Source: Elusimicrobiota bacterium (GTDB taxonomy: Bacteria > Elusimicrobiota > Elusimicrobia > UBA1565). From it: a stretch of 25,005 bases of DNA. Of this stretch, positions 5,005 to 24,979 are shown piece after piece (the first letter of the stretch is position 1; each line of letters starts with the position of its first letter). The DNA lies in contig JBFIEP010000001.1 of NCBI GenBank assembly GCA_041603335.1, positions 1-25,005 on the forward strand, in the 5' to 3' direction. Made by a program: the position numbers and the translations under genes. Under the pieces are notes generated by a model that made no database searches, was not told the DNA's origin, and was given only the letters and a program-made list of their open reading frames with translations.

Positions 5005-8000
5005 ATGATTCTTAAACAGTCCATTTCGGGACTTCTCGTAATCACTCTCTGTAGCAGTCACGCCACTCCCGCCTTTAGCCGTACGATCGCCGCGGGAAAC
5101 ACGGCGAATGCAAAGGTCGGCATGCCGGCCGCCATCAACACTCCGGCAACGTCTCTCACCACTCTCCCTCAAAACTCTCCCGCCCTCAACGGCGGGATTT
5201 CTTTTGCCCCATCCAACCTTCCCACATTGGATATGGCAAACCCGGCAACCTTGTCGCTAAACGTTACCGGTGTCGCTGGAAAATCTGCTGCAGTCGTTCC
5301 CTCGAATGCAGCCGTTATCCGACAACAGGCACCCGCGGGGTCGATCGCGTCCGTTATGCCCGCTCAGCCGGTCGTTCGCCGAGGACGTACGGCGAACGTC
5401 CAACTTTCCAATGCCGCTGCCCCCAACGCTGCTAAAAAAGAAACGGTTCTTGGATCGGCCGGTGAGCTTAACGCCGCAACCAAGAAATCAGGATTCGGCC
5501 GTGCCGCTCTTGGTCTCTTTAATCGCTTCTTTGACGGATTCGGAAAACGACAGACGCTCAACGGTGCCGATGAAGTAAAAGGGAAAGCGGCACCCGCGCG
5601 GCGCGGCGCTCTCGGCGACGTAGTCTTCCACGCTCTTAAAGACGGCAGCGACATCCGCACGCATCTTCCGCGAACTGTCGTTGTTTACGATACCTTCGCA
5701 GACAAAGCGCCCCAAGCAACTGTCAGCCGCCTACAAACCCTTATTAATGAAGGCGTACACATTGTTGTTATTTCCGACCGTCCCGAACGCGGCGAAGGGT
5801 CGATCGACGAAATTCTCGTTTCTAAACTGAAACCCTCAAAAACGAATCCGATCGCTGTCGCCAGCTATGCCGGTGCGCGCATCTCCTTTAAAGAGTCCTC
5901 GAAATGGACCGTCGTCAATGAAGCCGGTGCCTTCCAGGCGTCCGACATTGACCGCTTGGCGGAAATCGCCGCGCGTGCAAGTAGTGCCGTTAAACTTAAG
6001 AACACTCCCTCCTACACGGTTTCCCCAAAACAGGGCGACGCCCTCTCCGTTGAATTCCACCTGGAAGGAAAAGACCGGACCGGAAAAATTGTCGAAGCCC
6101 GGCGCCGCAATTTCATTGTCCGTTTTAACCGCTCGCTGTCTGCATCCAAGTCACCCTACCGCGCGCAGGAAAACCCCAACGACCCCGCCTCGATTATCAT
6201 AAACGCCTTGGCCCCGCGGCTCGCATTAGGCCGCATCGACAATGCGCTCAATGAACGCTTTAAAGGCGAAGACCTCACAGGAAAAGGCGACGAGACCATG
6301 GTCCTTTTAAGCGCGCGCGGGAACGAATCCTTCATGCGTACGATCACCGCCGATCCGGAATCCGTCCCGGGCTTGTTCCGCAACGCCTCCGTTCTCGACG
6401 CAGCCGATGCCGGCGCCCAAGCTTCGCTGCTCGGCGCCGTTGTCGAGGGGTCTCAACAGGCACCCATCGACGTTTCCATGAGCGACATGCGCCAATACCT
6501 CGACTTCTGGCGTCCCGTACTCGGCCGCAGCGGCAAAATAGCGAAGAGCAAGAACAACACCTCCGCAGGACGCTTCGGTCTTTTCACATGGCAGGTCCTG
6601 CACGACCTCATGACCGACTTCTACGTGGACACCGCCCGCGCCGGAACGAAATACACGAACTTCGGAAAATTCCGGGACTCGCTGCGCATGCGCTGGGCCG
6701 GAAAATCCAAGGACGGAAAGTTCCAACGCTATCGCGGTTCCAAGGCCGGAAAGACCGCAAACTCCGAATACCTCCGACACGCAGAACGCTTCGCCGAGAA
6801 TTTCTGGCAGCGCGAAATCGGCGACTTCCGAACCGCGCAGCTGGACATCCGTGAAAACCTTGTCACTGAAGGGAAGGTTTACACCCAAGTCCCTCTTCGA
6901 TCGCCGTTCACGGGACACACCTATAATCTCGGCGTTTCCATTGACCGCGTCATGAAGGTAGATACCTCCCAGGGCCGGGAATTAAACGCGACGATTTACC
7001 GGTTCGGAAAAGAGGCCGCGACCGACGGCGATGAAGCCCAAGCCCGCGCGGTGGCTCTCGCCGTGCTTCGCGGCTACGGCCGCAAAGGCGTGGACCTAAA
7101 GTGGCACCAGGGCTCCATTGAAGGACCGGCGCTGGCTCGCATCACCGTTCAAATCGAATACCTGAAACGCGCCCGGATTTTCGACTTCACGCCGGATGAA
7201 CTCCTTCAGATTGAAGCCGACGGCTCAATCTCCCAAGGCCCGAAAGCGCTCGAACTCGTTAACGAGATTGAATCCGCACAAGCCGACTACAAGTATGTCG
7301 CCTCTAAAAAGAAGAAGAGCAAGGTTGCTCCCAATCCGGAATGGGAGGGAACGGAGTGGGATGTCCGGGGAGAAGCCCTGAGTAACGTTTTTGCCGGGTA
7401 TTACCCCGACGCCCCAACCGTAGACCGTCTTCGCCCATTTATGAGTGAAGCGACCGCGCTTCGACCGCAGCCGAAATCGGAGCGCAGAGCGCAGATCGAA
7501 ATTCTCGACTCCAAAATCAACTGGCCCTCAAACGCCAAGACGCCCGACCCGATCGATGAGGACGGGTCCCAGATTGAAGACGATATCGAAGCGACGCCGC
7601 GCGTCGTTTTCATCGAAGACATTTTTAATGAACCCGCCGATGACGCAACGGTGGATCGCGTCCAGCGCCTCATCGATGCGGGAGCCCACGTCGTGTTTAT
7701 GACAGCGCGCCCGCACAAAGGGGAGGATTCCGCTGACAGCGTTCTTCTAGACCGTCTCAAGGTCGGACAGGCAAACCCGGTCATCGTCGCCAGCAACAAC
7801 GGCGGCCGCATCGCACTCCACTCCCGAGCGAAGGCATCGAAGCCTTATATTGACGACAGCCGGGCCTTTAACGACGAGACGCTCAAAACCTTCGACACCG
7901 TGGCCAATACCCTTTCCGGCGATCTCGACATTGAGTTTGAAATCGAAGGAACGGCGTTCCAATACGATATCTGGATTCCGCAATCGGTTTCCGCCGGCGA

Positions 8001-9348
8001 CGTCGCTTCAACCCGCTCAAAGTTAATCCGCGGCTTTAACGCGGCAATGAAAGCGGAAGGCCTCGAGTACACCATTCAGAAGCACCCGAAAAACCCGCGC
8101 CAGCTATGGGTCCGCTCCCAGCCGATGCGCATGTCGCTTGACCGCATCTTCCAAGCCCTCGACAAGCGTTTCGCAGGCGAAGAACTTCTCACCCGCCCGG
8201 AAACGTTCTTAGTGATCGGAGACTCGAAACGCTCGCTGAAGCTTTCGAAGGCCTGGCCGAAACTGACGACCTTCCGCTCGGCGCAGAACGAAAGCGAGAT
8301 TTTCGACTACCTCGGAAACATTCTCGGGGATCGAAAACAAAAGCAGGTAGGCGTTAAGCTCGGTGAGATTCGCTCCTACAGTGAGTTCTGGGAACCGATG
8401 CTGGAACGCCGTTCCGGAAACTTCGGAAGCGGGGGACACCAAAGCGCCCGAATGACCGAAGAAGACCGCCGCTACCACGGACCGTTAGCGATGTTCACCG
8501 GGTCTATCTTCTACAAGTTAATGCCGGAACTTTTCGAGAACGTTTGGCGCGGACAAGCCCGCAACACATCACGGTCGCACGCCATGAAGCGCCTTGAAGA
8601 TATGTGGCGCAATCCGGAAAAAGAAGGCGTGTTTGTCAGCAAGCGGCAGGCAGCGGTGATGAGCGAGCCCGGCTGGAAAACCCGCTCACGCGGCTACCTG
8701 CAGCGGGCACTCACGCTCTTTGGTGAAATTTACGACCGCACGTTCGACCACTACACCGACGCGGCCCAGGACATCATGCACAACATGGCCGCCCTCGCGA
8801 CCGATCGCCAAAGCCTGATCACGCTCGTTTTCAAGTCAGGCGGAAAGATCTACAAAGTATTCACGCGGCTGCCGCGGCTCATGAAGCATGACACCGTAGA
8901 CGGTCGGGTGTTGTCGGTAATCGCGTATCGCACCGGAAAGGAGCCTTTCGAAGGCGACGGCGGCGGAATTTACGCGAAAACGCTCGCGATGGCCGTTCTC
9001 GCCGGGTTCGCACAGCCCGGAAACGACGGCCAGTGGCACGACGGCTGGGCACAAGGACCGCGCATTTCAAAACTCCACATTCGATTGGAGTACAAGCAGG
9101 GAGCGCGGGATCTTTACTTCGACCCGAGCGACTTCTTTAAGATCCTGCCCAACGGCAGCTACCGCCAAGGTGTTGTCGTTAAGGAAATCGCAAATTTGAT
9201 CGAGCGCATGCGCGCCGATGAAGAGTTTCAAGAGCACTTCAAAGCTGAGAACGAAAAAGCGACCGATGAAGAAATCGCGGAAGCCAAGAAGAAGGGCAAG
9301 GGGACTGCCAAAAAACCGGCGGTCCTACAGAAGGGGGCAAAAAAATGA
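5005..9348 (+). CDS. P1: 1447-aa leader-bearing protein with two tandem ~550-aa units, each a degenerate HAD-IIB-like domain plus a degenerate PD-(D/E)XK-like domain
   Basis: GAGGGA SD 4 nt before the ATG; signal-peptide-like N-terminus. The internal duplication is visible in aligned blocks (VHIVVISDRP/AHVVFMTARP; NPIAVASYAGARI/NPVIVASNNGGRI; IYRFGKE/IAYRTGKE; WHQGSIEGPAL/WHDGWAQGPRI; IEYLKRAR.FDF/LEYKQGAR.LYF). Confidence 0.9.
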   Translation: MILKQSISGLLVITLCSSHATPAFSRTIAAGNTANAKVGMPAAINTPATSLTTLPQNSPALNGGISFAPSNLPTLDMANPATLSLNVTGVAGKSAAVVPSNAAVIRQQAPAGSIASVMPAQPVVRRGRTANVQLSNAAAPNAAKKETVLGSAGELNAATKKSGFGRAALGLFNRFFDGFGKRQTLNGADEVKGKAAPARRGALGDVVFHALKDGSDIRTHLPRTVVVYDTFADKAPQATVSRLQTLINEGVHIVVISDRPERGEGSIDEILVSKLKPSKTNPIAVASYAGARISFKESSKWTVVNEAGAFQASDIDRLAEIAARASSAVKLKNTPSYTVSPKQGDALSVEFHLEGKDRTGKIVEARRRNFIVRFNRSLSASKSPYRAQENPNDPASIIINALAPRLALGRIDNALNERFKGEDLTGKGDETMVLLSARGNESFMRTITADPESVPGLFRNASVLDAADAGAQASLLGAVVEGSQQAPIDVSMSDMRQYLDFWRPVLGRSGKIAKSKNNTSAGRFGLFTWQVLHDLMTDFYVDTARAGTKYTNFGKFRDSLRMRWAGKSKDGKFQRYRGSKAGKTANSEYLRHAERFAENFWQREIGDFRTAQLDIRENLVTEGKVYTQVPLRSPFTGHTYNLGVSIDRVMKVDTSQGRELNATIYRFGKEAATDGDEAQARAVALAVLRGYGRKGVDLKWHQGSIEGPALARITVQIEYLKRARIFDFTPDELLQIEADGSISQGPKALELVNEIESAQADYKYVASKKKKSKVAPNPEWEGTEWDVRGEALSNVFAGYYPDAPTVDRLRPFMSEATALRPQPKSERRAQIEILDSKINWPSNAKTPDPIDEDGSQIEDDIEATPRVVFIEDIFNEPADDATVDRVQRLIDAGAHVVFMTARPHKGEDSADSVLLDRLKVGQANPVIVASNNGGRIALHSRAKASKPYIDDSRAFNDETLKTFDTVANTLSGDLDIEFEIEGTAFQYDIWIPQSVSAGDVASTRSKLIRGFNAAMKAEGLEYTIQKHPKNPRQLWVRSQPMRMSLDRIFQALDKRFAGEELLTRPETFLVIGDSKRSLKLSKAWPKLTTFRSAQNESEIFDYLGNILGDRKQKQVGVKLGEIRSYSEFWEPMLERRSGNFGSGGHQSARMTEEDRRYHGPLAMFTGSIFYKLMPELFENVWRGQARNTSRSHAMKRLEDMWRNPEKEGVFVSKRQAAVMSEPGWKTRSRGYLQRALTLFGEIYDRTFDHYTDAAQDIMHNMAALATDRQSLITLVFKSGGKIYKVFTRLPRLMKHDTVDGRVLSVIAYRTGKEPFEGDGGGIYAKTLAMAVLAGFAQPGNDGQWHDGWAQGPRISKLHIRLEYKQGARDLYFDPSDFFKILPNGSYRQGVVVKEIANLIERMRADEEFQEHFKAENEKATDEEIAEAKKKGKGTAKKPAVLQKGAKK
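5665..9240 (+). repeat. Protein-level tandem duplication within P1 (unit 1 ~5665-7320, unit 2 ~7594-9240)
   Basis: Collinear amino-acid similarity over the whole unit with an offset of 643 codons; diverged at the DNA level. Confidence 0.85.
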
Positions 9349-12056
9349 CCACGAATATAATGACCCGGGTCTTCCTCGCGATCGCACTCGCCGTGAACGC
9401 CGCCTCCCCGGCCTTCGCCCGCACCCTGACCTCCGTTAAAGTTGCGCCAAGCCTCTCTCCTGTCGCTGGACCGACCGCGATTATGGGAAGCAATGGCGTG
9501 CAGGGCCAATCGCTTAGTCTCTCGGCCCCAACGCTTGGAACATCGCTTCCAACACTTGCACCGGCACTGATGCCCAATACAGTCAATGCCGCCGTTTCAG
9601 AAGCCGCTGCTCCGGTTTCACGCAAATTTGTTCCCACGGCCAGCGGATCCGGCCAAGCACGCGTGATCGAGGCTGCGCCGAAGGCGGCGATTAACGCCGT
9701 ATCTCCCGCTAAGGGCTCGACGTTTAAACAAGCTGCGGCGAAGAGTGAAACGGTGGAGCATACCGTCGGTACAGTATTTTCAGGCCGCGCCGCGAAAATT
9801 ACCGGGCGCGTCCTCAACACGCTCTTTGATTTCAGCGGAGCCAAGAGCGCGCTCAACGGCGCAGATCTCTCTGACAATGCCGTCGACGCGGATGTCGACG
9901 CCAAAGTAAAAGCCGACGCGGAAGAAGATCTATCAATCGTTCCTGAAGATGAAGACGCCGCCTTGGATCTCTGGTTTGGTAAGACAAACCAAGGGAAACT
10001 CTTTGATTCCAAGATTTCGGCCTCCATCCGCCCGATCAACAACAAGGGAAGCGAACGGTTCTGGGGCCAGTATCAGAGGAAAATTCCTATCCGCATCATC
10101 GCCGGCGGAAAGGTTCAGTTCATCACGCGCATCGTCAAATCCTACACCCGAAAAATCAAGGACCTTACTTTAGAGGATTATAAAGCGTATTACGGCTCAC
10201 GCATCGCCGCAAAGAAGGGCGGCGAAACCGACGCGAAACAGCTCCAAAGACTCGAAAACAAGCTTCTCGCCGAAATTAAATGGAAGTCCGAACGGAAACT
10301 CAACGCACCGAAGGTCATCAGCAACGAGATGAAGGTTCGCGTTCTCAACTTCCTTCCTTATGATCAAGCCCGCGATCTCCCGGACAACGGCATTGAAAAG
10401 ACGCCGGCTGTTCGAGATCGCAAGGATCTCGAAATTCCGGCAAAGCTAAAAGACCTCCACCGCCTTTTACCAAGACTCGTCGTCTTCGATCTCCGCCTTT
10501 ACGGAGACCGCATTCCCTTTGATGTGCTCGAAGACATGGGGAAGCTTCAGAAAGCCGGAATGACCTTCGTCTTCCTTTCAGACAAAACACAAGAAGAAGT
10601 CGAGAAGATGATTCGCCGCGACACCCCGGCTCACCAGCAAAACGAAATCACACGCTGGAAATTACTGAGCCTCTCCAACGACGGAAACACCCTCTACGGC
10701 TTCTCGGGTTCTTTTGAGGAACTAAAAACCTCCAAGCAGTTCCAAGCCGACCAGCAGGAAATCATCAAGCGCGCCGCAGGAGCGACGGAAGGTGCGGTTG
10801 TCGTTACCGATCGCCGCTATATGCTTCAAATGCGCGGCAAGCGCGGCGTTAACCTGGATGAACTAAAAACCGCATTCGAGGCCCAACTAAAACGCTTCGG
10901 CATGCCCGAAGGCAGCTACTCGCTTTCCATCGGGGATAAAGAAGGAGCCCCCGTTGTTCAGGTTCGCCCTTCAACCCTAGCCAACTCAATGGAGCAGTTG
11001 ATCGCTGATCTGCAAGTCCACGAAGGCCTCTACCTGAATCAGGAGCATATCCTGACCGTTACAGACGATCCAGCGATCATGAAGGCACTTCCGGGTGCGA
11101 AGCATGCAGCGCCCGACATGCCCAAAGCCACCGACCGCTCCGACTACATTGAAACCGCATTGGCGGCGATGCTTGATACCTACCGCGTCAACAAGGTCGG
11201 GGACCTTGCGGCCTCGGCATCTTCGATGAAATCGTTCAAATACCGGCAACTCTACGGCGGCGGCGGCGGATTTGAATACCGCATCTATATGCTCATGGGA
11301 CACGTCGGGCACGCGGCGCTCGACTGGGCTGTCATGAAGTACAACGAAGACGGAAAACTCCCGCCCTTTGAAGACACCGTGAAGGTTGCCCGGGACATTT
11401 GGGTTCGCGAGCAAATCGATGTGACCAACAACATGCTTGAACGCGCTCGCGAAACGAACCTCGGGTACCGCGATGCGATGGAAGCGCGCATGTTCACCAT
11501 GTACGAAGAACTTCAACGAACGTTGGAGCTCTACCCGATCGCACTTGGAACCGAGCTTCCTAACTTGATGGTGGTCGACCGCTTCAACAAGGTCGGAGAG
11601 CCGACCCACCGCGACATCTTCCGCGGCCTGTTCGACTTGGTCGTCGCCAAAAAAGTGAAGGGCGGACTTGAAGTGTTTGTCACCGACTTTAAGACCGGTC
11701 AAACACCGGCGCTGCAGCACATGTCCAAGGATCTGCAGGTTTTGCTATACGACTTCTTCTCACGCAAGCTCTGGCCGACCATCAATGCGCCGTATTCATT
11801 GGCGCAACCGCTTGTGAAGGTCGTCAGCCGCGTCGTTGCCTTCATCTTCCCGCGCGGCATGCAGGGAAAGACAATCAACGAATTCGACCGCCTGACATTT
11901 GAGAAAACCATCAATCTCCTCATGCTCAAAATGCGTAAGCATAGCGGGAACCTTACCGAAGAGATGATGGAGAAAGAACGCCTGAAGGCGGAACGCGAAG
12001 CGCGCAAGGAACTCGCAGAAGCCAATAAAAACAAGAAAAAGTCCGATAAAAAATAA
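9345..12056 (+). CDS. P2: 903-aa leader-bearing protein with an ASCH/PUA-like domain, a degenerate HAD-like domain and a C-terminal RecB-family PD-(D/E)XK nuclease domain
   Basis: ATGA overlap with the P1 stop. Nuclease motifs SASS..SF, GHVGHAAL, E737, GLFD764L, TD781FK783TG and Q798VLLY802. HAD-like blocks PRLVVFDL, FVFLSDK and LSNDGN. Confidence 0.9.
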   Translation: MTTNIMTRVFLAIALAVNAASPAFARTLTSVKVAPSLSPVAGPTAIMGSNGVQGQSLSLSAPTLGTSLPTLAPALMPNTVNAAVSEAAAPVSRKFVPTASGSGQARVIEAAPKAAINAVSPAKGSTFKQAAAKSETVEHTVGTVFSGRAAKITGRVLNTLFDFSGAKSALNGADLSDNAVDADVDAKVKADAEEDLSIVPEDEDAALDLWFGKTNQGKLFDSKISASIRPINNKGSERFWGQYQRKIPIRIIAGGKVQFITRIVKSYTRKIKDLTLEDYKAYYGSRIAAKKGGETDAKQLQRLENKLLAEIKWKSERKLNAPKVISNEMKVRVLNFLPYDQARDLPDNGIEKTPAVRDRKDLEIPAKLKDLHRLLPRLVVFDLRLYGDRIPFDVLEDMGKLQKAGMTFVFLSDKTQEEVEKMIRRDTPAHQQNEITRWKLLSLSNDGNTLYGFSGSFEELKTSKQFQADQQEIIKRAAGATEGAVVVTDRRYMLQMRGKRGVNLDELKTAFEAQLKRFGMPEGSYSLSIGDKEGAPVVQVRPSTLANSMEQLIADLQVHEGLYLNQEHILTVTDDPAIMKALPGAKHAAPDMPKATDRSDYIETALAAMLDTYRVNKVGDLAASASSMKSFKYRQLYGGGGGFEYRIYMLMGHVGHAALDWAVMKYNEDGKLPPFEDTVKVARDIWVREQIDVTNNMLERARETNLGYRDAMEARMFTMYEELQRTLELYPIALGTELPNLMVVDRFNKVGEPTHRDIFRGLFDLVVAKKVKGGLEVFVTDFKTGQTPALQHMSKDLQVLLYDFFSRKLWPTINAPYSLAQPLVKVVSRVVAFIFPRGMQGKTINEFDRLTFEKTINLLMLKMRKHSGNLTEEMMEKERLKAEREARKELAEANKNKKKSDKK

Positions 12057-12081
12057 GTTTTTTAACTCCTTAAAAAGGAAG

Positions 12082-12109
12082 GGCCCCGCCGCGGCGGGGC
12101 CTTTTTTTT
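12082..12109 (+). terminator. Rho-independent terminator after the P1-P2 operon
   Basis: GGCCCCGCC / GGCGGGGCC GC-rich inverted repeat followed by T8 (12102-12109), 25 nt after the P2 stop; an A-rich run upstream may make it bidirectional. Confidence 0.92.
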
Positions 12110-12156
12110 GCCCCTCTGAAGACCCATAAATCCCTAGGCCTTAATCCTTGACACCT

Positions 12157-12172
12157 CAGGGCCTAGGACCCA
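12157..12172. promoter_or_regulatory. Candidate operator CAGGGCCTAGGACCCA upstream of P3
   Basis: 12/16 identical to 15382-15397; abuts the expected -35 position of the extended -10 at 12192-12200. Confidence 0.5.
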
Positions 12173-12191
12173 GAGTCTAAAGCCTGACCCC

Positions 12192-12200
12192 TGGTACAAT
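12192..12200 (+). promoter_or_regulatory. Extended -10 promoter TGgTACAAT for P3 (likely leaderless or near-leaderless transcript)
   Basis: TGn + TACAAT ends 8 nt before the ATG at 12209; no SD in between. Confidence 0.6.
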
Positions 12201-12208
12201 AGTTGTAT

Positions 12209-15200
12209 ATGGAAAAGAAGAAATCTATCCCGTCATCCTTTATCAAATCCCTTTCAATCTCTGTCGCTGCCGCCCTGATCGTCGCCTCGCCCGGTCCCTT
12301 TGCGACCCGTGCGTTTGCGAAGGTACTAGGGAAGGCTCCGACGAACATCTCTGTTGGCGTGACCCTTGGCCAGATCGGACTACCGGCTCTCGGCTCCCCT
12401 TCATTAACGAACGCAAACGCCACGCTTGCCGCGCCGCAGCTCGGAGCCAGCGTTCTTCCGACGCTTATTGCGCCGACATTCACCCAAAGCAAAACGGTCG
12501 CCCAGCAGGCGACCGTTTCTCGTTCCGCCGCGCCGGAAGCCGCAATCGCTGCCGAGCAGATAATTTCGATCGCTCCGACATCCGCACGCTCACTTGTTGT
12601 TGAAGAAACGGAAACCGCGAAGAAGGAACAGCCCACAACGCTTCAGGACCTGACAGCCGGCGTTGCGGAAATTAAACAAGCGAAGTCGCACTCCGGTGCC
12701 CGCGCAGCACTCACAAATCTTTTCACCGGCAGCCGCAAGACAGCGCGAACAGATACGGTTCTCGGCCGTATCGGACAACGCGCCAGTTCCCTTCTTTCGC
12801 CTGCGAAATCGCTTAACGCAGCCGATGAAAAATCGTCAAAGAAAACAACGGACGTTCCCGCGCCTCCGGCAGCCAATGACGACTTTCTCGATAAGCAGGC
12901 GACAAAGCAGGTCGCAAACCTCGTTGCTGAATACAAACGCATCGATGAAGCCGGACTGTGGGCCGACGCGAAAGAAACCGCGGTTTTCGTTAAAGAAATA
13001 ACCTGGTTCGCCGCCCGAGGGCGGGACAAGGACGGATCACCGGAACTCTCGATTCAAAAAATCGAGGAAGCACTCGCCGCAGAAGGCATCTCCAACACCG
13101 CCGCAGTGCGCAAACAGCTCATCGCTTTAAATGAGTCCACCCAATTAGGCCTCTCGGAACAAAAAGCCGCCGGCGGATCCTACCTCGCCGCAGAGGGCGT
13201 TGATGACGACGGCTTTACACCGATGCAGCGAAAAGGTCTTTTCGGAATGCTTTGGTCCCGCCCTTTTGGAATGCTCGGCTTCTCACTGAGCGCGATGGCC
13301 TATCCCTTGATGCTCATCGACACCGTTGGAAAATCAACGATGTATGAGCTCTTCTCCTTGGGCGGCATCATCTCCATTGGCGTCAATCTGCTTGTCGGAA
13401 AAGTCGGAGACCACCTTCCGCTTAAGAAATACATCGTTTTCAACGCCCTTCTCCGCTCGGCATTAAGCGCGGCCAACGCCGTTCTTTACACGATGGGCTT
13501 CCTCAATTTCTGGTCCCTGCTGTTTCTCACCGTCATCAACGCCTGGCAGTTCGCCAGCCTCTTCATTACCGATGACGCGATGATGGCCGAAATCGTAGGC
13601 CCCAACCGGAAGAAGATCTTTTCGACGTCCATCCTCATCCGGACGATGGGACTATTCGTCACGATCGGTTCCGGCATTTTCCTCGGAGAATTCATCGTTG
13701 ATGGATTAGGATTTGTAGCCACCTTCTCAATCGTTACGGTCGCCGCCGCCATCCCGGCCCTTATTCTCTGGGGAGCACTGCCCAACATCGGCGTAAAGGA
13801 TGGAAACGCGCCGCTTGGAACGGTTCTCGCGAAACTTCCGGGGATGGTTCTCGCCGCACCGGGCAAAGCTTTCAACGCCCTTAAAGGTCTGCCGTGGAAA
13901 AAATACGGGTCTTACGCCCTGACAGCCCTCAGCCTGGGTTCGACAGCGGCAGCCTTCTACTTCGGAACCCCGCTAGTGGGAACAGCCATTACAATGACCT
14001 ACGGCGTCATCGGCGGCGTTCTTGTCGCGGCGGCATCGTCTATCGGACTCGTTGCGGCCAACCGCCTCATGAAGGCGCACAAGGCCGAGCAGTCGGGAGA
14101 ACCGATCGAAGACAAAGAGGGCGACAACGTTCGCACCGTTCTCTTTAATACCGCGATCATCGGAGCAGCCCTCGCCGGCTACACCTTCATCTACCAGACG
14201 CCGTTCTGGTTTGTCGGCGGCGTAACCTACATGCTCACACGATCGGAAATCTTTAAGAAAGTCATCATGCGCCACGGCCTGCTAAAGATGGCGCTGCTCA
14301 TGGTTATCGCGACGACATTCGTAGAGGTCCCGCTTAGAAACGCCGTGCTGGGTGCACTCTCGGAAGAACTCGTCGGCGAAGCCGGCAAGGCTGCCTTCTA
14401 CGGAAAGCTGATCGCCGCGTTCACGCTCGGACAGCTCGTCACGGCGACGGGGAATCTTTCCCGGTCGCTGCAGATTGTGGTCAAAAAGCTCGGGTTCTTT
14501 AAACTAAAGAAACCGCTCTCCTTCAATCTATACCACACAACGCGCTGGCTCGGCGCCGCGGTACTCGCCGCGTGGGGACTCTACTTCATCGTTCCCGCCG
14601 GTTGGCTCGCCATGGCTGCCGCAGCGGTTCCGAATCTCACCGCCCAATTCGGATTTGAGGCCGGAATAAAACTCGGACTCATCGGGCCGTTGCTCGGAAT
14701 GTTTGCCGGTGCCATGACAGCACTCTGGGGCTACGCACGCCAAGACAAAGGCAAGAAATTCGGCTCAACACTTAAGACGGTGGGAACCATCGGGTTTGTC
14801 GCGGCCTTAACACTTCCGATTCTACCCGGACTCATCGCGGCTCTACCCGCAGGCGTCACAACGGCCCTGGGTCTGGCCATTGCCGGCGGAGCGTTCTACA
14901 AGTTCTACCAGCTCATCCATGACAACGCCAAAACAATTAAGCCGACCTCGTGGCTCCGCCTGGAAGCGGTGGGACTCGTCGCCATCGGTGTTCTTCCGCT
15001 CGTGACAGGGTTTAACCCGATTGCGCTGTACGCCAGCTTATTCCTATTCGGAATGACGCATACGCCGGCTAAGTACAATATTGGATCAGCCTACTCGGCT
15101 ACCGCTAAAGAAGTAGACGATAAGAACTACCAGTTCCTCAGCGCCATTAAGGGAACGTTTGTGGTCATGGCAGGGTCCATTGCCTACGCGATATACGGCC

Positions 15201-15367
15201 TGGCCAAGGATATACCCGAGATGCTCTGGGACAATCCGAACGCCTTCCCGTTCACCTGGCAGGTGCTCGCGGTCATTTACGGCGCCATTGCCGCCCTGTA
15301 TGTTTACAGCAGTTACCGGATGAATTTCGACAAGAAGAAAGCATCCGAAAAAAAGACGGAAAAATAA
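12209..15367 (+). CDS. P3: 1052-aa leader-bearing protein with a short helical domain and an expanded (~20 TM) MFS-type permease
   Basis: Start moved from TTG 12203 to ATG 12209 on promoter geometry. MFS motif-A-like G-KVGD-HLPLKK after TM2; many hydrophobic helices; collinear similarity to the P4 MFS region. Confidence 0.88.
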   Translation: MEKKKSIPSSFIKSLSISVAAALIVASPGPFATRAFAKVLGKAPTNISVGVTLGQIGLPALGSPSLTNANATLAAPQLGASVLPTLIAPTFTQSKTVAQQATVSRSAAPEAAIAAEQIISIAPTSARSLVVEETETAKKEQPTTLQDLTAGVAEIKQAKSHSGARAALTNLFTGSRKTARTDTVLGRIGQRASSLLSPAKSLNAADEKSSKKTTDVPAPPAANDDFLDKQATKQVANLVAEYKRIDEAGLWADAKETAVFVKEITWFAARGRDKDGSPELSIQKIEEALAAEGISNTAAVRKQLIALNESTQLGLSEQKAAGGSYLAAEGVDDDGFTPMQRKGLFGMLWSRPFGMLGFSLSAMAYPLMLIDTVGKSTMYELFSLGGIISIGVNLLVGKVGDHLPLKKYIVFNALLRSALSAANAVLYTMGFLNFWSLLFLTVINAWQFASLFITDDAMMAEIVGPNRKKIFSTSILIRTMGLFVTIGSGIFLGEFIVDGLGFVATFSIVTVAAAIPALILWGALPNIGVKDGNAPLGTVLAKLPGMVLAAPGKAFNALKGLPWKKYGSYALTALSLGSTAAAFYFGTPLVGTAITMTYGVIGGVLVAAASSIGLVAANRLMKAHKAEQSGEPIEDKEGDNVRTVLFNTAIIGAALAGYTFIYQTPFWFVGGVTYMLTRSEIFKKVIMRHGLLKMALLMVIATTFVEVPLRNAVLGALSEELVGEAGKAAFYGKLIAAFTLGQLVTATGNLSRSLQIVVKKLGFFKLKKPLSFNLYHTTRWLGAAVLAAWGLYFIVPAGWLAMAAAAVPNLTAQFGFEAGIKLGLIGPLLGMFAGAMTALWGYARQDKGKKFGSTLKTVGTIGFVAALTLPILPGLIAALPAGVTTALGLAIAGGAFYKFYQLIHDNAKTIKPTSWLRLEAVGLVAIGVLPLVTGFNPIALYASLFLFGMTHTPAKYNIGSAYSATAKEVDDKNYQFLSAIKGTFVVMAGSIAYAIYGLAKDIPEMLWDNPNAFPFTWQVLAVIYGAIAALYVYSSYRMNFDKKKASEKKTEK

Positions 15368-15381
15368 CGATTATTTATACC

Positions 15382-15397
15382 TAGGCCGTAGGTCCCA
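15382..15397. promoter_or_regulatory. Candidate operator TAGGCCGTAGGTCCCA upstream of P4
   Basis: Best-matching copy of the motif shared by four upstream regions. Confidence 0.55.
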
Positions 15398-15414
15398 ATA
15401 ACTCCTAGGCACAC

Positions 15415-15453
15415 AAACACCCTCTGGGCCCCTTATTGGCTCAGGGGGTGTTT
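15415..15453 (+). other. 16-bp RNA stem-loop in the P3-P4 intergenic region
   Basis: AAACACCCTCTGGGCC-(CCTTATT)-GGCTCAGGGGGTGTTT pairs without interruption, with two G-U pairs on the plus strand; it ends 24 nt before the AGGAGGT SD. Confidence 0.7.
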
Positions 15454-15489
15454 CGGGTTTTGAGACACAATTTAAATAGGAGGTGGTTG

Positions 15490-18400
15490 ATGTATATTAA
15501 TTCCAGAATCGCTGTCGGAGCAACCCGAATGATATCGGGACTGCTCGTTATTGCGATCTGGATTTCTTCAATTGGACCCGCCGCAGCCCAGGCTGCCGGT
15601 CCTGTCATAGGCAAAACCGCTGCGGGCGCCATCAAAGCTCCGGCCACGCTCGTCATCCCCTCCATTGCCGCTCCCATTCTCGGAAATACCGCCTCAAATT
15701 CAATTGTTCCTGGACTTGAATCAGGAGTACTTCCCACTTTAACTCCTACGATTCTCGCGACACCCGAAAAGGCCGCATCTGTTTCCGTTCAAAAATCCCC
15801 TATTGCAGAATCAATTGCTTCGGCAGAGACAAAGGCAGAGGAAGAAAAACCCGCCAAAACCGTTCGTGAACAAGTCGTAAAAGTCGCACAGCAACTCACC
15901 CAAACCAAGGGTTCATCCGCTCAAGCTAAAGTCCTAAACACTCTCTATCTTGGCGGACTTAATGCTGCGGACGAATCCAATAATGGCGTCGACGCCTCGG
16001 GAGGCACGCCCTCGAAAAATGTGCGCCTGCGCAAACAGGCGCTCGCGGAACTCGTCATTGCGGCAACCCAACCCAAAAGCACGCTCAAGAGCCGCAAGGC
16101 TGCAATTCGAGTTATCGCGAAGGTCCAAACCGAAGAAGCACGCGAAGCGCTGGAGCTCGTCGCGGACGCAAACCCCGAGGGAAACGCGCAGGACTATGAG
16201 ATCCACCGCGAAGCACTCAAAGCCCTTGATGCAAAATTCGGACTCCACAAATCCCTTCGCCCCATCTCAGAGTCGCACAAAAACGAGATTCTCGCACAAC
16301 TCGCCGCCGACAAACCCGAAATGGTCCTTACCGACTATGACCGCACCCTCGCGGAGACGAAGGTTGAAATTTCACCGGAGATGGCCGAGGCGGTAGCATC
16401 TGTCCCTAACGCGGGCGTGGAAATTGCAATCCTAACCGACCGACCCGCGCAGCCGCGCTTTGAAGGCGACATCACCATCTTTCAATCACTCGAATCAATG
16501 ACGCCCGCTCAAAAGAGCAAGCTCACCGTACTCTCCGATATCGGGTCAAAAACGTCCCTTTTTAACAAAAACGGCTCACCCCAATTGATCGGTGAAGTAA
16601 GGACCGAATTAACCGCTCAACAGCGGGAGGTGCTCGGCAAGGCTTCAAAGGCGCTTCAGGAGCGGTTCGGGGACCAGGACTTTCTTGGCAACACGGAAGT
16701 CTATGAAGCCGATTCCTACGAACGCTTTCTCCCCAAATCCCTAAGCGATGCGGAAATTGCGGAAGCCGGATTGCTGGTAGAAACCATCCTCAAGGCGGAC
16801 GGTGTTCTCGACGCTCATATCGTCTCCCGCCGGCCGCTGGGAAAAGGGGACGTTCCCTACGTTCGCGTTAACATCGTTGATAAATCCGCTTCCGCAGCCC
16901 GTATCCGCAAGGATGTCCGCTTTCTGGAACGGGCCCGCGACGTCATCCGCTTCGGCGGCGGGACACGCGCGCTGAAGTTCGCTAAGAAAATTTTCTCCCG
17001 TTTCCCCCGGCGGCCTGTGACCGCGAGAAAAACCGTCGTTATCGGCGACAGCTTTATGCCCGAAGTCGTCGCTCCGGGATCTGACGCCCTGATGGCAAAA
17101 GGCGCCCCCGAAGCTCTGTCCTTCGCCGTCGCGGGAGTCGCGAGCCCCCGCGTCAACAACGTGTTCGTTTGGCCCACCATGGGGGAAACCGCTTCGCTAG
17201 AAATTCTCGGGGCCATCGGAACGAAAGCCGTAAGCGATGTCGATAAAAAAGGCGTCGCGGGTCTCTTCGCGCAGCGAACGATTGCGATCACAACCTTTAT
17301 TCTCACAACAATTGCGTTTACAGCCATCGCGGTTCCCGCCATCGGGTGGGTCGGCTACGGAACGGTCATGGCCGTGGGTGCGTTAGCCCCCATTGCCGTG
17401 GGTCCTCTTAACGGCTGGATCGTCGATAAGCTCTCAGCCCGCAATTCGATGATGATGAATCAAACCGCACGCGTACTCCTGGACTTCCTTCCCCCCGCGC
17501 TCGTCTTGCTGGGAATGGTGAATACGCCGATGCTTATCGTCGCGGCGATCGCGAACTTCTGGGTTCTTTCCTCGGTCATGACGACCGAGGGCGCCTACAT
17601 TAAACGCCTCGCCGGGAAAAAATACGTGGGTCCGATTAACAGCCTGCTTTGGATGAACTACCTGGTCGTTCAGGTTGTCCTGGCTCTCATCCTTGGGTTC
17701 GGAGCGGTCGTTGGAATCGTGGGGCCTATCAATGCCTACTTCATCGCCGCCGCCATCAACGCCTTTATTATTATGCCGATCGTCTGGGTTACGATGCCGA
17801 ACGCAAAACCGATCCCAAAAACATTGTTGGGCATAGAATCGGAAATGCAAGGACTGAAAGACGGCCCTCGCCTTAAAAATCTCGAGAAAGCCCTGAATGA
17901 AAGAGAGTCGGCTTTAAACAAAGAAGTCGACCAATTTGAACTTGCCCTCGCCGATCTTGAGAATAATAAATCCCCCGATGTTGAGACAGAGCTTCGCGTA
18001 ACCCGTGAAGACCTTGCCGCGATGCGCGCGGAGCTCGCCCGAACACCGGCACCTTCCTTCACTCTCGCCCAGCGAAAGACAAATCTCAAAATCAAAATCG
18101 CAGCCGGACTAAAGCAATACGGCATTGGATTCGGACTGCTCGGGGCATCAGTCCTTAGCTACATTTTCCTATGGGCCTCCCCGGTTCCCATTGCGATCGC
18201 GTTGGGCTATCTTGTTTTACGCACCGACGGCGCAAAACTGCTGTGGTCCGGTCGCGGACGCGATATCAGCAAACAGGAATCCCAACTCGTTGAAACGATA
18301 CGCGCGCTGGAAGCGGAAGGCAAAACGGATTCGAAAGAACTAAAAGAGGCTAAGTCGGAACTCACCCGCTGGAAAAAATCTCCCCGCATCGCGATGCTCT

Positions 18401-19167
18401 ATATCGCACTCGGCGCGCTGACGCTCGGTCCGCTGCAAAGCTTCGGGATTCCCCGCTTCACCGAAGCCGTGACGGGACTGCCGATGTCTTCGCCTGAATC
18501 CTCGCTTCTCTTCGGCCAATACCTGGGAGCCATGTTTTTTGGAAGCCTGATCGCTAACGCGGCCCAGGTGCGGCTTCCCGAAATTCACGTCCCTTTGTTC
18601 GGCCGCATCGGAGGCCACCGCTTTGTACAAGGACTCGTTGCGGCACTCGCACCCATCTGGGTATACACCAGCCTCATTCCGGGAAGCGTTGTCGCTTCCG
18701 GCGCGGCACTCATTTTAGTCAGCGCACTTATGGCCATGGCCGCAAAACTCACAAACCGGGCGTGGATAAAAATTCTTGGACTCGGAATGGCGGGAATCTG
18801 GCTTCCCTATCTTGCCTGGGGCTCAGCCTTCCTATCACCCGGATTAGCGATGTTCCTGTCCGTGCTGCTCGCGGGGATGGTCTACGGCCCTGCGTTTGTT
18901 TCACTTAAAACGATTTTCGAGGGGAGTCTCCAAAAGAGTCTGCTTGGAAAAATGATCGGTGTTCAAGGCTCCTTGTTGAGTACGGCACGGGCCATCTCCA
19001 TTGGCGGAGCGGCAGCGATCTATGGGGCGCTAAACCCGGCATTTCCGACATTTTTGGGGGTGCTGGGAGGGTTCTACCTCTTAATTGGAATCGCCTTCTG
19101 GATTGCGCCGCGCTTCTTCCCCGCCTTACCCAAGACCCACCTCCGGCCAAACGACCGCCGCCGCTAA
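15490..19167 (+). CDS. P4: 1225-aa leader-bearing fusion of HEAT-like repeats, a HAD-IIB (Cof-type) phosphatase and an expanded (~16 TM) MFS permease with coiled-coil inserts
   Basis: Perfect AGGAGGT SD 5 nt before ATG 15490 (track start 15436 is too long). HAD motifs D282YD284RT, ILTDR, VDKS and VIGD520S...SD532. MFS motif-A-like GWIVDKLSARN. HEAT-like RKAAIRVIAKV..EEAREAL. Confidence 0.9.
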   Translation: MYINSRIAVGATRMISGLLVIAIWISSIGPAAAQAAGPVIGKTAAGAIKAPATLVIPSIAAPILGNTASNSIVPGLESGVLPTLTPTILATPEKAASVSVQKSPIAESIASAETKAEEEKPAKTVREQVVKVAQQLTQTKGSSAQAKVLNTLYLGGLNAADESNNGVDASGGTPSKNVRLRKQALAELVIAATQPKSTLKSRKAAIRVIAKVQTEEAREALELVADANPEGNAQDYEIHREALKALDAKFGLHKSLRPISESHKNEILAQLAADKPEMVLTDYDRTLAETKVEISPEMAEAVASVPNAGVEIAILTDRPAQPRFEGDITIFQSLESMTPAQKSKLTVLSDIGSKTSLFNKNGSPQLIGEVRTELTAQQREVLGKASKALQERFGDQDFLGNTEVYEADSYERFLPKSLSDAEIAEAGLLVETILKADGVLDAHIVSRRPLGKGDVPYVRVNIVDKSASAARIRKDVRFLERARDVIRFGGGTRALKFAKKIFSRFPRRPVTARKTVVIGDSFMPEVVAPGSDALMAKGAPEALSFAVAGVASPRVNNVFVWPTMGETASLEILGAIGTKAVSDVDKKGVAGLFAQRTIAITTFILTTIAFTAIAVPAIGWVGYGTVMAVGALAPIAVGPLNGWIVDKLSARNSMMMNQTARVLLDFLPPALVLLGMVNTPMLIVAAIANFWVLSSVMTTEGAYIKRLAGKKYVGPINSLLWMNYLVVQVVLALILGFGAVVGIVGPINAYFIAAAINAFIIMPIVWVTMPNAKPIPKTLLGIESEMQGLKDGPRLKNLEKALNERESALNKEVDQFELALADLENNKSPDVETELRVTREDLAAMRAELARTPAPSFTLAQRKTNLKIKIAAGLKQYGIGFGLLGASVLSYIFLWASPVPIAIALGYLVLRTDGAKLLWSGRGRDISKQESQLVETIRALEAEGKTDSKELKEAKSELTRWKKSPRIAMLYIALGALTLGPLQSFGIPRFTEAVTGLPMSSPESSLLFGQYLGAMFFGSLIANAAQVRLPEIHVPLFGRIGGHRFVQGLVAALAPIWVYTSLIPGSVVASGAALILVSALMAMAAKLTNRAWIKILGLGMAGIWLPYLAWGSAFLSPGLAMFLSVLLAGMVYGPAFVSLKTIFEGSLQKSLLGKMIGVQGSLLSTARAISIGGAAAIYGALNPAFPTFLGVLGGFYLLIGIAFWIAPRFFPALPKTHLRPNDRRR

Positions 19168-22783: not shown

Positions 22784-23449
22784 ATGAAGCCCGAAGAAAT
22801 AGATGAAGCACTTCAACTCCTGGCCCCAATCGTCAGCCACGAACTTCGCAATCCGATGGCCGTGATTAAGAACTCGTCATATTTTATCAAGACCAAGCTC
22901 GGGAACCTAGACGTTAAAGATGAAAAAATCGCCCGGCACCTCAGTATTATCGATGTTGAACTGGTAAATGCCAACAATTGCCTCGAAGAAATACTCCTCT
23001 ACGCGCGGATGCCCGAAGCCAAGGTCTCTCCCCAGAACCTCAACGACCTCATCAAGGCGGCGCGCCTGGCCGTAGAGCTTCCAGACGGTGTCCTCATAGA
23101 ATCAGAACCTGCCGGCGAGGAAACCAAGGTCGAAGCAGACCCTGAACTTGCCGCCCGAGCCATCATGCACGTCATTCGCAATGCCGTCCAAGCGGCCTCT
23201 GCCGATGAAGATGCTGATGTCGCTGTTTCCGCCGACGACGACGGCACCGTTTTAGTTGTTGATTCCGCCAAGGGCGGAATCCCCGAAAAGGCCCTGCCGC
23301 GTCTCTTTGAACCCTTCAACACGACCAAGCCCAAGGGCATAGGGCTCGGACTCGCCTACGCCACCAAGGCGCTCGGGCGCATGGGCGCGACCCTAATACA
23401 CAAACCCGGGGATGAAACCGTGTTTGAAATTAAGTTTAAGAAGGCTTAA
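22784..23449 (+). CDS. Sensorless histidine kinase (HisKA + HATPase_c only)
   Basis: H-box SHELRNP, N-box IRNAVQA, atypical G1 DSAKGGIP, F/G2 LFEPFNTTKPKGIGLGL; no TM or sensor domain. ATG 22784 is preferred over TTG 22766. Confidence 0.88.
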   Translation: MKPEEIDEALQLLAPIVSHELRNPMAVIKNSSYFIKTKLGNLDVKDEKIARHLSIIDVELVNANNCLEEILLYARMPEAKVSPQNLNDLIKAARLAVELPDGVLIESEPAGEETKVEADPELAARAIMHVIRNAVQAASADEDADVAVSADDDGTVLVVDSAKGGIPEKALPRLFEPFNTTKPKGIGLGLAYATKALGRMGATLIHKPGDETVFEIKFKKA

Positions 23450-24903
23450 AGAAGCCAGCGCAGTAAACGGGCGGCCGCCCGCTGCAATCCCGAGAGGGGT
23501 TTATTCGCCAATTCCTTCATTGTCTCGAGCGTGAGCAGGAAAGCATTCTTGTAATGCTCAAGGGAGAACTCGGCGATGGTATCGTTTTCAGAATGAATGA
23601 TGTCCCAGATGACTTCGTTTGAAGCCCCCATCACGGTCATGCCTGGGATTCCGTACCGGCGAAACGTCGAAGAATCGCTGTCGCCGCCGCGCAGAACCAT
23701 TTCCTGAAGTGCGTACCCGGTACGCACAGCAACGCTTTTTATCAAAGAAAGCAGCGAACGATCCGAATTGTTTTTCCAAGAGAATGTGCCGTCGACCGCG
23801 AGCGTGTCGAGATTTATCATCGCATCGATACGACTGCGTTCCGCCCGGTCCATGTTCCTTAGAAAGGCTTTCGATCCGAGCAATCCTTCTTCCTCACGGG
23901 CAAACCCGATGAAGACGATCGTGGCATCGGTCGCAAGATCATGCATGGCCTGATAGAGGTTGGCGACCATCGTCGCCCCCGTCCAATTGTCGATGGTTCC
24001 CGCGCCGCGGTGGACCTTGTCATGGTGACCGCCGACGACAATGACGCGATCGCTCTTTCCCGGCTTCACGACATAAATGTTATTGCGGCCGCGGCCGACA
24101 TCCTGTAAATGGATCTGATCACGGGACGCTCCGGCACGTTCGAAAAGCTCTACGAGAACCCGCTCTCGTTCGGGGTTGGTCAGGGGAGAGAGCGCGACGG
24201 AATCATGCAATTGATCATCGGTCGGCACGCCCAAAACGCCCAAGCGCGGACGTCCCGCTGAAAATCGGCGCTTGGCAAAGGAGACGAAGGATTCCGGCGA
24301 CTCGTGGGTGCTGGCGGCAGAGGCCGAGGGACCGCCGTCAAATAACGCGGCAAGACGGTCTTTAAAATTATTGCCCTCGGCGAAATCGCGGCTCAGGGCT
24401 TCAAAGAGGGGTCTGCCTTCGGCGTCGGGGCCCAAGGCCTCAATCTTTTTTGCGACACGAATTCCCTCGGGACCACCGCGTTCCCGCAACGTACGAACAA
24501 GGCGATCACGCTTTTCTCTATCACCTAAAGCCTCACCGACAATCCTTGCCGCATCAGGACGGCTCGCCAGTGCGGGAGACGCTGCCGGATTTCCCATCGG
24601 AGTCAAAGCGGGGAGGGTCTCGCGGGAGAGATATTCGACGGCTGCCGATTCTCCGGTGGGGAATAACCCTTCAGCTGGCAGTTGAATTAAATCTATATCG
24701 GGAAGTACGGTCCCGAGCCGAAGAGAAAGATGGTCCACCTGAAAGCCAATCGCTCGAACCGCTCCTGCGGCTACCCCGATAGAAGCTGGTGCAAAGGCAG
24801 GGGGCGTCATCGCCTTTCCCGGACCACGGAATGCAGTTGGTGCCGCTAGACCCGGGACAGAGAGTGTTAATGATAAGACGATTGAAAGGGCAGCTTTCCT
24901 CAT
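23446..24903 (-). CDS. Exported M28 family zinc peptidase with a ~200-aa low-complexity leader
   Basis: Zn-ligand motifs GGHHD, GTIDNWTG, REEEGLLGS, INLD and IHSENDT. Start reassigned to ATG 24903 (MRKAALSIVLSLTLSVPGLAA signal peptide). The leader contains LPALTP and LAALFDG. Confidence 0.9.
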   Translation of the reverse strand: MRKAALSIVLSLTLSVPGLAAPTAFRGPGKAMTPPAFAPASIGVAAGAVRAIGFQVDHLSLRLGTVLPDIDLIQLPAEGLFPTGESAAVEYLSRETLPALTPMGNPAASPALASRPDAARIVGEALGDREKRDRLVRTLRERGGPEGIRVAKKIEALGPDAEGRPLFEALSRDFAEGNNFKDRLAALFDGGPSASAASTHESPESFVSFAKRRFSAGRPRLGVLGVPTDDQLHDSVALSPLTNPERERVLVELFERAGASRDQIHLQDVGRGRNNIYVVKPGKSDRVIVVGGHHDKVHRGAGTIDNWTGATMVANLYQAMHDLATDATIVFIGFAREEEGLLGSKAFLRNMDRAERSRIDAMINLDTLAVDGTFSWKNNSDRSLLSLIKSVAVRTGYALQEMVLRGGDSDSSTFRRYGIPGMTVMGASNEVIWDIIHSENDTIAEFSLEHYKNAFLLTLETMKELANKPLSGLQRAAARLLRWLL

Positions 24904-24963
24904 AGTAATCCCACAATACAAAGCTGTCGGAAGTGCTCTATGAGCAGAAAGTCCCAAATCTCT

Positions 24964-24979
24964 CAAGGCATAGGTCCCA
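24964..24979. promoter_or_regulatory. Candidate operator CAAGGCATAGGTCCCA upstream of the M28 gene
   Basis: 12/16 identical to 15382-15397; 60 nt upstream of ATG 24903; an additional GTCCCA half-site at 24951-24956. Confidence 0.45.

Follow-up and report, generated by a model that had tools for sequence, protein, structure and literature searches.

A signal-peptide-like N-terminal tag on inside-facing permeases and other nearly cysteine-free proteins in one order of Elusimicrobiota

Two tandem permease genes and their predicted orientation

The window analysed here is the whole stretch of 25,005 nucleotides at the start of contig JBFIEP010000001.1, which belongs to a metagenome-assembled genome (MAG) of an Elusimicrobiota bacterium (84% complete, genome ~4 Mb). 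Four tandem genes on the forward strand span positions 5005-19167. The first two, P1 and P2 (5005-12056, +), encode soluble paralogues, P1 being pseudo-HAD/nuclease-like and P2 a PD-(D/E)XK nuclease, and the last two, P3 and P4, encode the permeases that are the subject of this work; all four proteins start with the same N-terminal tag, the first part of which looks like a signal peptide. P3 (12209-15367, +) is a protein of 1052 amino acids comprising the leader tag, a domain of ~150 amino acids and an MFS-related polytopic membrane domain. P4 (15490-19167, +) has 1225 amino acids and comprises the leader tag, helical repeats, a predicted HAD-IIB phosphatase and a 14-helix MFS core. Neither protein contains a single Cys. 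The open reading frames (ORFs) open at 12203 and 15436, respectively, and the recorded starts of the called proteins are the Met codons at 12209 and 15490. Two topology rules bear on such proteins: the chain behind a cleavable signal peptide is exported, and loops rich in Lys and Arg stay inside.

The signal-peptide-like segment of P3 covers residues 1-37 (12209-12319, +) and consists of an n-region with a net charge of +3, a 14-residue core, PGP and A-F-A followed by K; that of P4 covers residues 1-35 (15490-15594, +), again with a basic n-region and a 14-residue core, which is followed by GP and by A-Q-A and then A. In P3, the rest of the tag (12320-12826, +) begins with an acid-free, uncharged spacer of Pro, Ala, Ser and Thr and carries LPTL at 12455-12466, LTNLF at 12710-12724 and LNAAD at 12812-12826. 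The corresponding part of P4 (15595-15972, +) has a disordered spacer, with LPTL at 15730-15741, LNTLY at 15934-15948 and LNAAD at 15958-15972. The membrane domain of P3 extends from the first transmembrane helix (TM1) to the last helix at 13265-15307 (+), with motif A at 13397-13429. In P4, a soluble N-domain at 16012-17220 (+), in which helical repeats are followed by a HAD fold (motif I, DYDRT, at 16333-16347) and which was modelled with a predicted local distance difference test score (pLDDT) above 90, precedes the MFS core at 17260-19116 (+), whose motif A lies at 17413-17445 and which is followed by a basic C-tail.

The Pfam model MFS_1 matched P4 just above its threshold (33.6 bits at a cut-off of 33.4) and over the N-terminal half only, and it did not match P3; sequence searches of the PDB with the membrane domains of P3 and P4 and with the N-domain of P4 returned nothing useful. 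Relatives of the P4 permease amounted to 93 cluster representatives among 1.8 billion proteins, 68 of which were aligned for modelling. The AlphaFold2 model of the P4 core (pLDDT 93.4, predicted TM-score 0.89) has 14 helices in a 6+2+6 arrangement and a coiled-coil insert in the central loop, and a Foldseek search with it yielded 165 matches at E<=1e-3, the top 50 of which were all MFS proteins and the best 14-helix transporters of the POT type. The membrane domain of P3 aligns to that of P4 by profile-profile comparison (hhalign 97.3%, E 2e-11, 416 columns). Motif A follows helix 2 in both proteins, as GWIVDKLSARN in P4 (residues 642-652) and as GKVGDHLPLKK in P3 (residues 397-407); the family consensus of this stretch keeps a Gly, the Asp and an Arg, with one Gly and one Arg conserved in at least 90% of the homologues.

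We determined the likely orientation from the sequence by counting Lys and Arg on the two faces defined by the AlphaFold2 model. The ratio of inside to outside is 51:1 for P4, 31:1 for P3 and 30:1 in the median, with more of these residues inside than outside in all 68 homologues. The Lys/Arg-rich face carries the N-terminal domain, the loop with motif A, the long central loops and the C-tail, and because of this bias, the N-terminal domain is placed on the canonical inside face. P3 and P4 are, as modelled, MFS permeases in the ordinary orientation, P4 by its own model and P3 by homology to P4. The bias also makes a true inversion of the permease very unlikely. In that case, a normal signal peptide would be followed by a periplasmic HAD domain that dephosphorylates scavenged nucleotides and by an MFS core that imports the nucleosides. 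The canonical appearance of the signal peptide and the Cys-free soluble domain would agree with this arrangement, as would the usual scavenging logic of nuclease, phosphatase and transporter. In 5 of 23 loci (L056, L064, L065, L068 and L075), the gene immediately 5' of the P4 orthologue encodes the tagged nuclease P2. However, the ratio of 51:1 would then be the wrong way round, and so would the bias in 68 of 68 homologues, a reversal for which we know of no precedent; the helices and would-be cytoplasmic loops are also free of Cys, and the same tag on ABC exporters (described below) would place intact ATPase domains in the periplasm.

The architecture proposed in a first-pass annotation of this DNA, with a signal-like leader, ~310 (P3) or ~550 (P4) residues without an obvious membrane helix and then an MFS core with motif A, was borne out by these analyses, in which the helix-free stretch measured ~315 or ~555 residues, respectively, and the positive-inside analysis that it had suggested identified the face bearing the N-domain as the canonical cytoplasmic one. 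It had offered three ways out of the resulting conflict in topology. A truly inverted permease is now strongly disfavoured, while a leader that acts as a non-Sec signal or anchor and delivery to another membrane both still stand. It had also described the domain between the tag and the membrane domain of P3 as helical.

The N-domain of P4 is predicted to consist of helical repeats and a HAD-IIB phosphatase with conserved catalytic motifs. The residues D282, D284, K465, G519-D520 and D532, corresponding to catalytic motifs I-IV, are kept by at least 90% of the 40 homologues compared; the family profiles remained below their cut-offs (17.5 against 41.8 bits for TIGR01484), and Pfam gave no HAD match. 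In the AlphaFold2 model of full-length mature P4 (pLDDT 85), residues 26-124 are disordered (pLDDT ~30 over mature residues 1-99), followed by two short helices round LxxLY, a disordered LNAAD stretch, the helical repeats, the alpha/beta HAD domain and the permease.

A clade-specific tag and its cargo

A hidden Markov model (HMM) of the leader, built from four N-termini and iterated on the ORFs of the genome, matched at least 66 proteins, always at the N-terminus and spanning most of the ~200 model positions, and a few further tagged proteins were seen by eye among Cys-free membrane proteins. The N-terminal 'signal' of P3 and P4 opens a clade-specific tag of ~200 residues, in which the signal peptide is followed by one or two basic residues, ~55 uncharged residues, a charged stretch, LxxLFDG and LNAAD. 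The acid-free spacer of ~55 residues is composed of Pro, Ala, Ser, Thr, Gly and Leu and contains LxAPSLxxSLPTL. The c-region of the leader (SPG-L/P-xx-Y/F-E/Q-A-x-A) is kept in more distant orthologues and across genera, a conservation beyond what a plain signal peptide needs. Within the clade of P4-type MFS proteins, a strict heuristic flagged the leader in 53 of 64 members, and inspection by eye of the other 11 revealed ~6 with the leader and ~5 without an N-terminus; essentially every full-length member of the clade carries it.

Among the 201 genomes of the phylum that were sampled, the tag is confined to one order, where two families have it in many copies per genome. Family f3 contains genomes that have the tag as well as genomes that do not. 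Five relatives in this order had no or one leader match; four of them are without the permease, and the fifth has the permease inside a frame of 1148 amino acids. The loci of the P4 family come from Elusimicrobia/Elusimicrobiota MAGs in 20 of 23 cases, the other three being titled only 'bacterium'. Looking up the leader in the ESM Atlas led to unnamed clusters only, the top two of which were mostly from Elusimicrobiota, with scores of 0.82-0.84 that are within noise. The tag marks an undescribed sorting class; none of the papers listed in the literature searches describes it, although no search was aimed at the tag.

In the charge of the n-region (mean +1.9), core length (median 13) and hydrophobicity, the leaders match the ordinary signal peptides of the genome, and the small-x-small site, read by eye, is kept in 15 of 16 leaders. 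The segment behind them differs. The 30 residues after the core have a net charge of +2.5 and are acid-free in 69% of the tagged proteins, the corresponding values for the ordinary signal-peptide proteins of this genome being +0.3 and 9%, and the tagged proteins thus do not have the neutral or acidic start of the mature protein that is expected of Sec/signal peptidase I (SPase I) substrates. Other types of signal were considered and rejected: the twin-arginine consensus of Tat signals is absent from most n-regions, there is no conserved lipobox Cys as in lipoproteins, and neither the G/FTLIE motif nor the order of elements of a prepilin-type signal is present. It is also highly improbable that the leader is a reverse anchor, that is, an additional helix (TM0) lying N-out/C-in in a 15-helix protein with a short external N-tail. 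Such an anchor would restore a consistent topology with everything downstream in the cytoplasm and would suit the basic residues after the helix, but the n-regions carry net charges of +1 to +5, again with the mean of +1.9, the cores, at ~13 residues before the Pro/Gly, do not have the length that a stable span requires, and the conserved small-x-small site would be left without a role.

We also looked at the region between the leader and TM1. The next 19-residue window with a Kyte-Doolittle value of at least 1.5 is found at residue ~353 in P3 and at residue ~591 in P4; the sole intermediate hydrophobic peak in P4 reaches 1.48, includes three Pro and one Lys and lacks conservation among orthologues. 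For 53 tagged proteins of this genome, the best 19-mer of the spacer has a median of 1.14 and contains 1-4 Pro; four spacers reach 1.6, none of which has at most one Pro and no charge. Some orthologues possess Pro-rich hydrophobic stretches in the spacer with 19-mer values of 1.6-2.0. Based on the modelled disorder and this hydropathy survey, a conserved second transmembrane helix in the spacer was rejected; a crude 'biological hydrophobicity' sum gave no separation between the spacer and genuine MFS helices and was not used. The same data bear on the idea that the signal peptide lies N-in/C-out, that the spacer is partly periplasmic and that the chain returns by an unrecognised crossing, such as a Pro-rich stretch or a partner channel. 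This appears quite improbable: the run of ~55 charge-free residues, far beyond chance, and the stretches of 1.6-2.0 would be in line with it, but the median of 1.14 with 1-4 Pro, the poor conservation and the modelled disorder of the spacer are not, and the exclusion of Cys would be left unexplained.

The first-pass annotation had expected its paradox to dissolve if the signal peptide were rejected or if a transmembrane segment between leader and TM1 returned the chain to the inside. The leader has proved indistinguishable from ordinary signal peptides by n-charge, core and hydrophobicity, and no conserved second helix was found. What it had described as an oddity of two genes is real in both P3 and P4, but it had missed that the leader belongs to a proteome-wide tag on at least 66 nearly Cys-free proteins.

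The proteins behind the tag form a varied set. It stands directly ahead of three other canonical N-in proteins, in each case with no extra helix: an SDF symporter, in which position 1 of the Pfam profile falls on residue 229, a plain MFS protein, which starts at residue 225, and an ABC half-transporter with a membrane domain from residue 245 and a Walker A motif. Two tandem, overlapping and full-length ABC exporters (C22:2138-7375 and C22:7333-12066, both +; 1745 and 1577 amino acids) are likewise tagged and free of Cys, with two membrane and two ATPase domains each. Further tagged membrane proteins include a rhomboid, M50 and S8 proteases and an MscS-like protein (C126:2744-4564, -), whose hydropathy profile is too ambiguous for a helix count; MscS itself is N-out. 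Among the soluble cargo is a ClpB/Hsp100-type double AAA+ protein (C358:1-3228, -; two Walker A motifs, a D2-small domain and no Cys), while the ClpC encoded at 2115-4601 of the window is untagged and has 2 Cys. Similarly, a tagged adenylate kinase paralogue (C72:4275-5303, -; ADK profile positions 1-147 of 151, E 1.8e-30), adjoined on the same strand by a tagged PLD (C72:5316-7268, -), exists beside the untagged housekeeping adk (C11:11253-11822), which has a Cys in its P-loop. Other soluble cargo comprises a MoxR ATPase, an acyltransferase plus AMP-binding (Aas-like) enzyme, nucleotidyltransferases, a CheR-like protein, HD and LOG domains, PLDs, and S8, M19 and M28 peptidases, while no adhesin-type or outer-membrane protein domains were found among the top cargo families. 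A signal-peptide-like leader thus precedes members of no fewer than four unrelated superfamilies of N-in transporters as well as several enzymes that depend on ATP, which makes the topology paradox general. The membrane cargo also implies that, in whichever membrane these transporters reside, the tag ends on the side that is rich in Lys/Arg and has the ATP.

In their entirety, the tagged proteins contain 33 Cys in 40,726 residues, mostly in the leader. Met, Trp and His are not depleted in the tagged cargo, and a general depletion of oxidation-sensitive residues was rejected since Cys alone is affected. As a separate observation, 34 of the 85 ORFs of at least 900 amino acids in this genome are without any Cys.

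Within the window, the tagged class accounts for 5 of 14 genes, including one for an M28 peptidase on the reverse strand (23446-24966, -; leader HMM E 5.7e-14). A class-A beta-lactamase-like protein (1031-2152, -) has a long, very basic N-terminal extension ahead of a hydrophobic segment. At other loci of the P4 family, a response regulator gene is located 3' of the P4 orthologue in four cases (L053, L054, L061 and L066), two of which (L054 and L066) also have genes for a FlgD-Ig protein and a PorV-like outer-membrane protein.

Possible destinations of the tagged proteins

The signals in these proteins are conflicting because a canonical leader and the depletion of Cys occur together with an inside-facing topology and ATP-dependent cargo. 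We tentatively favour the reading in which the tag delivers the chain to the inner membrane but leaves the part behind it unexported. The hydrophobic leader helix would take the nascent chain to the inner membrane by signal recognition particle (SRP)/Sec-type targeting, perhaps with cleavage, and the basic, acid-free start of the spacer would block translocation, so that everything from the spacer through the soluble domain to the start of TM1 would stay cytoplasmic and the permease would insert normally. The conserved islands of the tag might serve the sorting or assembly of this protein class. The phosphatase of P4 could then remove the phosphate from a phospho-metabolite where the permease opens to the cytoplasm, and the permease would move the product. 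The tagged nuclease P2, which is often adjacent, might supply the substrate in the form of a nucleotide. A line from nuclease to phosphatase to permease, leading from nucleic acid to nucleotide to nucleoside and to transport, is plausible, and its direction would depend on the location.

Targeting without export fits the topology, the ATP dependence of the cargo, the normal hydrophobicity of the helices and the basic segment after the signal. In E. coli, basic residues early in the mature region impair translocation by Sec. We count in its favour the cargo that requires ATP, nucleoside triphosphates or S-adenosylmethionine, namely, the double AAA+ protein, MoxR, the adenylate kinase paralogue, the Aas-like enzyme, the nucleotidyltransferases and the CheR-like protein. 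Further points in its favour are the other N-in proteins directly behind the tag, the disorder predicted for the spacer and the lack of a conserved second helix. Helix hydrophobicity is 1.88 in tagged and 1.91 in untagged polytopic proteins (p 0.72), which fits ordinary insertion by SecYEG/YidC; the reduced hydrophobicity expected of secreted membrane effectors was not seen in the tagged polytopic proteins, although this is weaker evidence because an inner-membrane intermediate exists in Legionella (PMC11602083).

Several observations weigh against this favoured reading. The tagged cargo has 6 Cys in 25,237 residues (0.024%, compared with 0.89% genome-wide), a depletion of ~37-fold, and beyond residue 60, Cys is absent from 49 of 53 tagged proteins. 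The same is true of each of the 15 polytopic proteins with the tag, helices included, as opposed to 12% of the other polytopic proteins, and the Cys-free status in this genome tracks signal-peptide proteins (42%) and not cytoplasmic ones (13%). Exported proteins characteristically exclude cysteine (Daniels et al., PMC2823432), a feature that is left unexplained if the tagged proteins are cytoplasmic. Moreover, the kept small-x-small site and the median core length of 13 are features of cleavable signal peptides and not of anchors, and a targeting helix or tether is superfluous on proteins that have 6-14 helices. Since the housekeeping adk and ClpC are untagged, the tagged proteins form a separate class, as would be expected if they worked elsewhere. 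Finally, a location outside the cytoplasm would be physiologically more sensible for the combination of nuclease, phosphatase and transporter and for the tagged peptidases and PLDs.

The main, though somewhat unlikely, alternative is that the tag is a two-part address, made up of a signal peptide and of a transit-like, acid-free spacer with docking motifs, by which a Cys-free parallel proteome is shipped out of the producer's cytoplasm to another place that contains ATP. The proteins might end up in a prey or host cell, in its cytoplasm and membrane, or else within the producing cell in an additional energised compartment. The Lys/Arg-rich face of the transporters, which bears the HAD or nucleotide-binding domains, would then be turned towards the ATP side, and the phosphatase of P4 would strip the phosphate from nucleotides released by the nuclease, with the permease passing the nucleoside across. 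Such shipment would account for the exclusion of Cys over the whole chain, including the helices and 'cytoplasmic' domains, and for the canonical features of the signal peptide with its small-x-small site. The conservation of the c-region and of three further motifs implies a dedicated receptor, and untagged housekeeping copies coexist with the tagged proteins. The cargo, with its transporters, Clp-type and MoxR AAA+ proteins, rhomboid, S2P, adenylate kinase, PLD, Aas-like enzyme, nucleases and phosphatases, resembles the set of an organelle or of effectors and is unlike a normal secretome. Strongly hydrophobic membrane effectors of Legionella can indeed pass via an inner-membrane intermediate (PMC11602083).

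However, the tagged 14-helix proteins have a normal helix hydrophobicity, which is difficult to reconcile with shipment (compare Krampen et al., PMC6110835). Moreover, a search of this genome (84% complete) for VirB4 (PF03135) found no match, nor was any machinery identified that could act as a partner, and there is no independent sign of a predatory or symbiotic lifestyle in the ~4 Mb genome. We know of no route by which a Sec signal peptide carries a normally hydrophobic 14-helix protein past the cell's own inner membrane, and a periplasm containing ATP is, to our knowledge, not known in bacteria. The genome is that of a diderm, with at least four secretin and at least four Omp85-family genes, one clear signal peptidase I and weak DsbA-like matches; a search for ATP/ADP translocases gave no match, but neither did the control genomes. 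Overall, we regard it as unlikely that this one order of Elusimicrobiota runs an undescribed trafficking route in which a bipartite address sends a Cys-free proteome to an ATP-containing destination outside the cytoplasm.

Implications and comparison with known systems

The two topology rules given above contradict each other in every member of the P4 family and in at least four unrelated superfamilies of tagged transporters. If the favoured reading, in which the tag targets but does not export, is true, the cell systematically takes a canonical-looking signal peptide as an address for targeting and not for export, and this would change the interpretation of signal-peptide predictions. If instead the proteins are shipped, complete transporters and machines driven by ATP leave the cytoplasm of a bacterium, a form of protein traffic that would be new, and with such an extracytoplasmic route, P4 would act as a combined phosphatase and transporter in an outer or foreign membrane. 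The near-total loss of Cys provides a simple sequence marker for the tagged class, and the HAD-MFS fusion is a convenient, reporter-friendly test protein.

The permease part of P4 has its closest counterparts in the 14-helix MFS transporters of the POT type (PepTSt and GkPOT; PDB 4ikv and 5oxn, among others), with which the model shares the two six-helix bundles and the extra hairpin in the central loop (Foldseek probability 1.00, TM-score ~0.65 on the target), motif A in the loop between helices 2 and 3, and both ends inside. P4 differs from them in its low identity (~11%, with no PDB match by sequence), in the coiled-coil insert in the central loop and in the domain of ~430 residues, consisting of helical repeats and HAD, that is fused to TM1 after a tag of ~160 residues, and it belongs to a small clade. 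The Cof-type HAD-IIB phosphatases include sugar-phosphate phosphatases that act with efflux permeases. The predicted phosphatase domain of P4 shares the group's DxDxT, Lys and GD...D motifs and the alpha/beta fold, but it scores below the thresholds of the family HMMs, is covalently fused to its permease and stands behind the tag.

With signal peptides of the Sec/SPase I type, the tag has in common the basic n-region, the core of ~13 residues, the helix breaker and the small-x-small site. Unlike these, it has a conserved c-region, a following stretch of 30 residues that is acid-free and net-positive, three motifs and cargo that is N-in or ATP-dependent. The transmembrane effectors of the type IVb secretion system (T4bSS) of Legionella are likewise strongly hydrophobic proteins with a secretion signal, and they enter the inner membrane of the producer first (PMC11602083). 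Their signal is, in contrast, C-terminal and cytoplasmic and is served by type IV secretion machinery, whereas the tag is N-terminal and Sec-like and VirB4 was not found.

In secondary plastids, bipartite targeting involves a signal peptide followed by a disordered transit peptide that is acid-free, net-positive and hydroxylated or rich in Pro/Ala, and the cargo is a mixed proteome with polytopic transporters, Clp-type machines and adenylate kinases. Although the plastid system is eukaryotic, has known translocons and shows no sequence relation to the tag, its layout and its mix of cargo appear, by analogy, similar to those of the tagged proteins described here.

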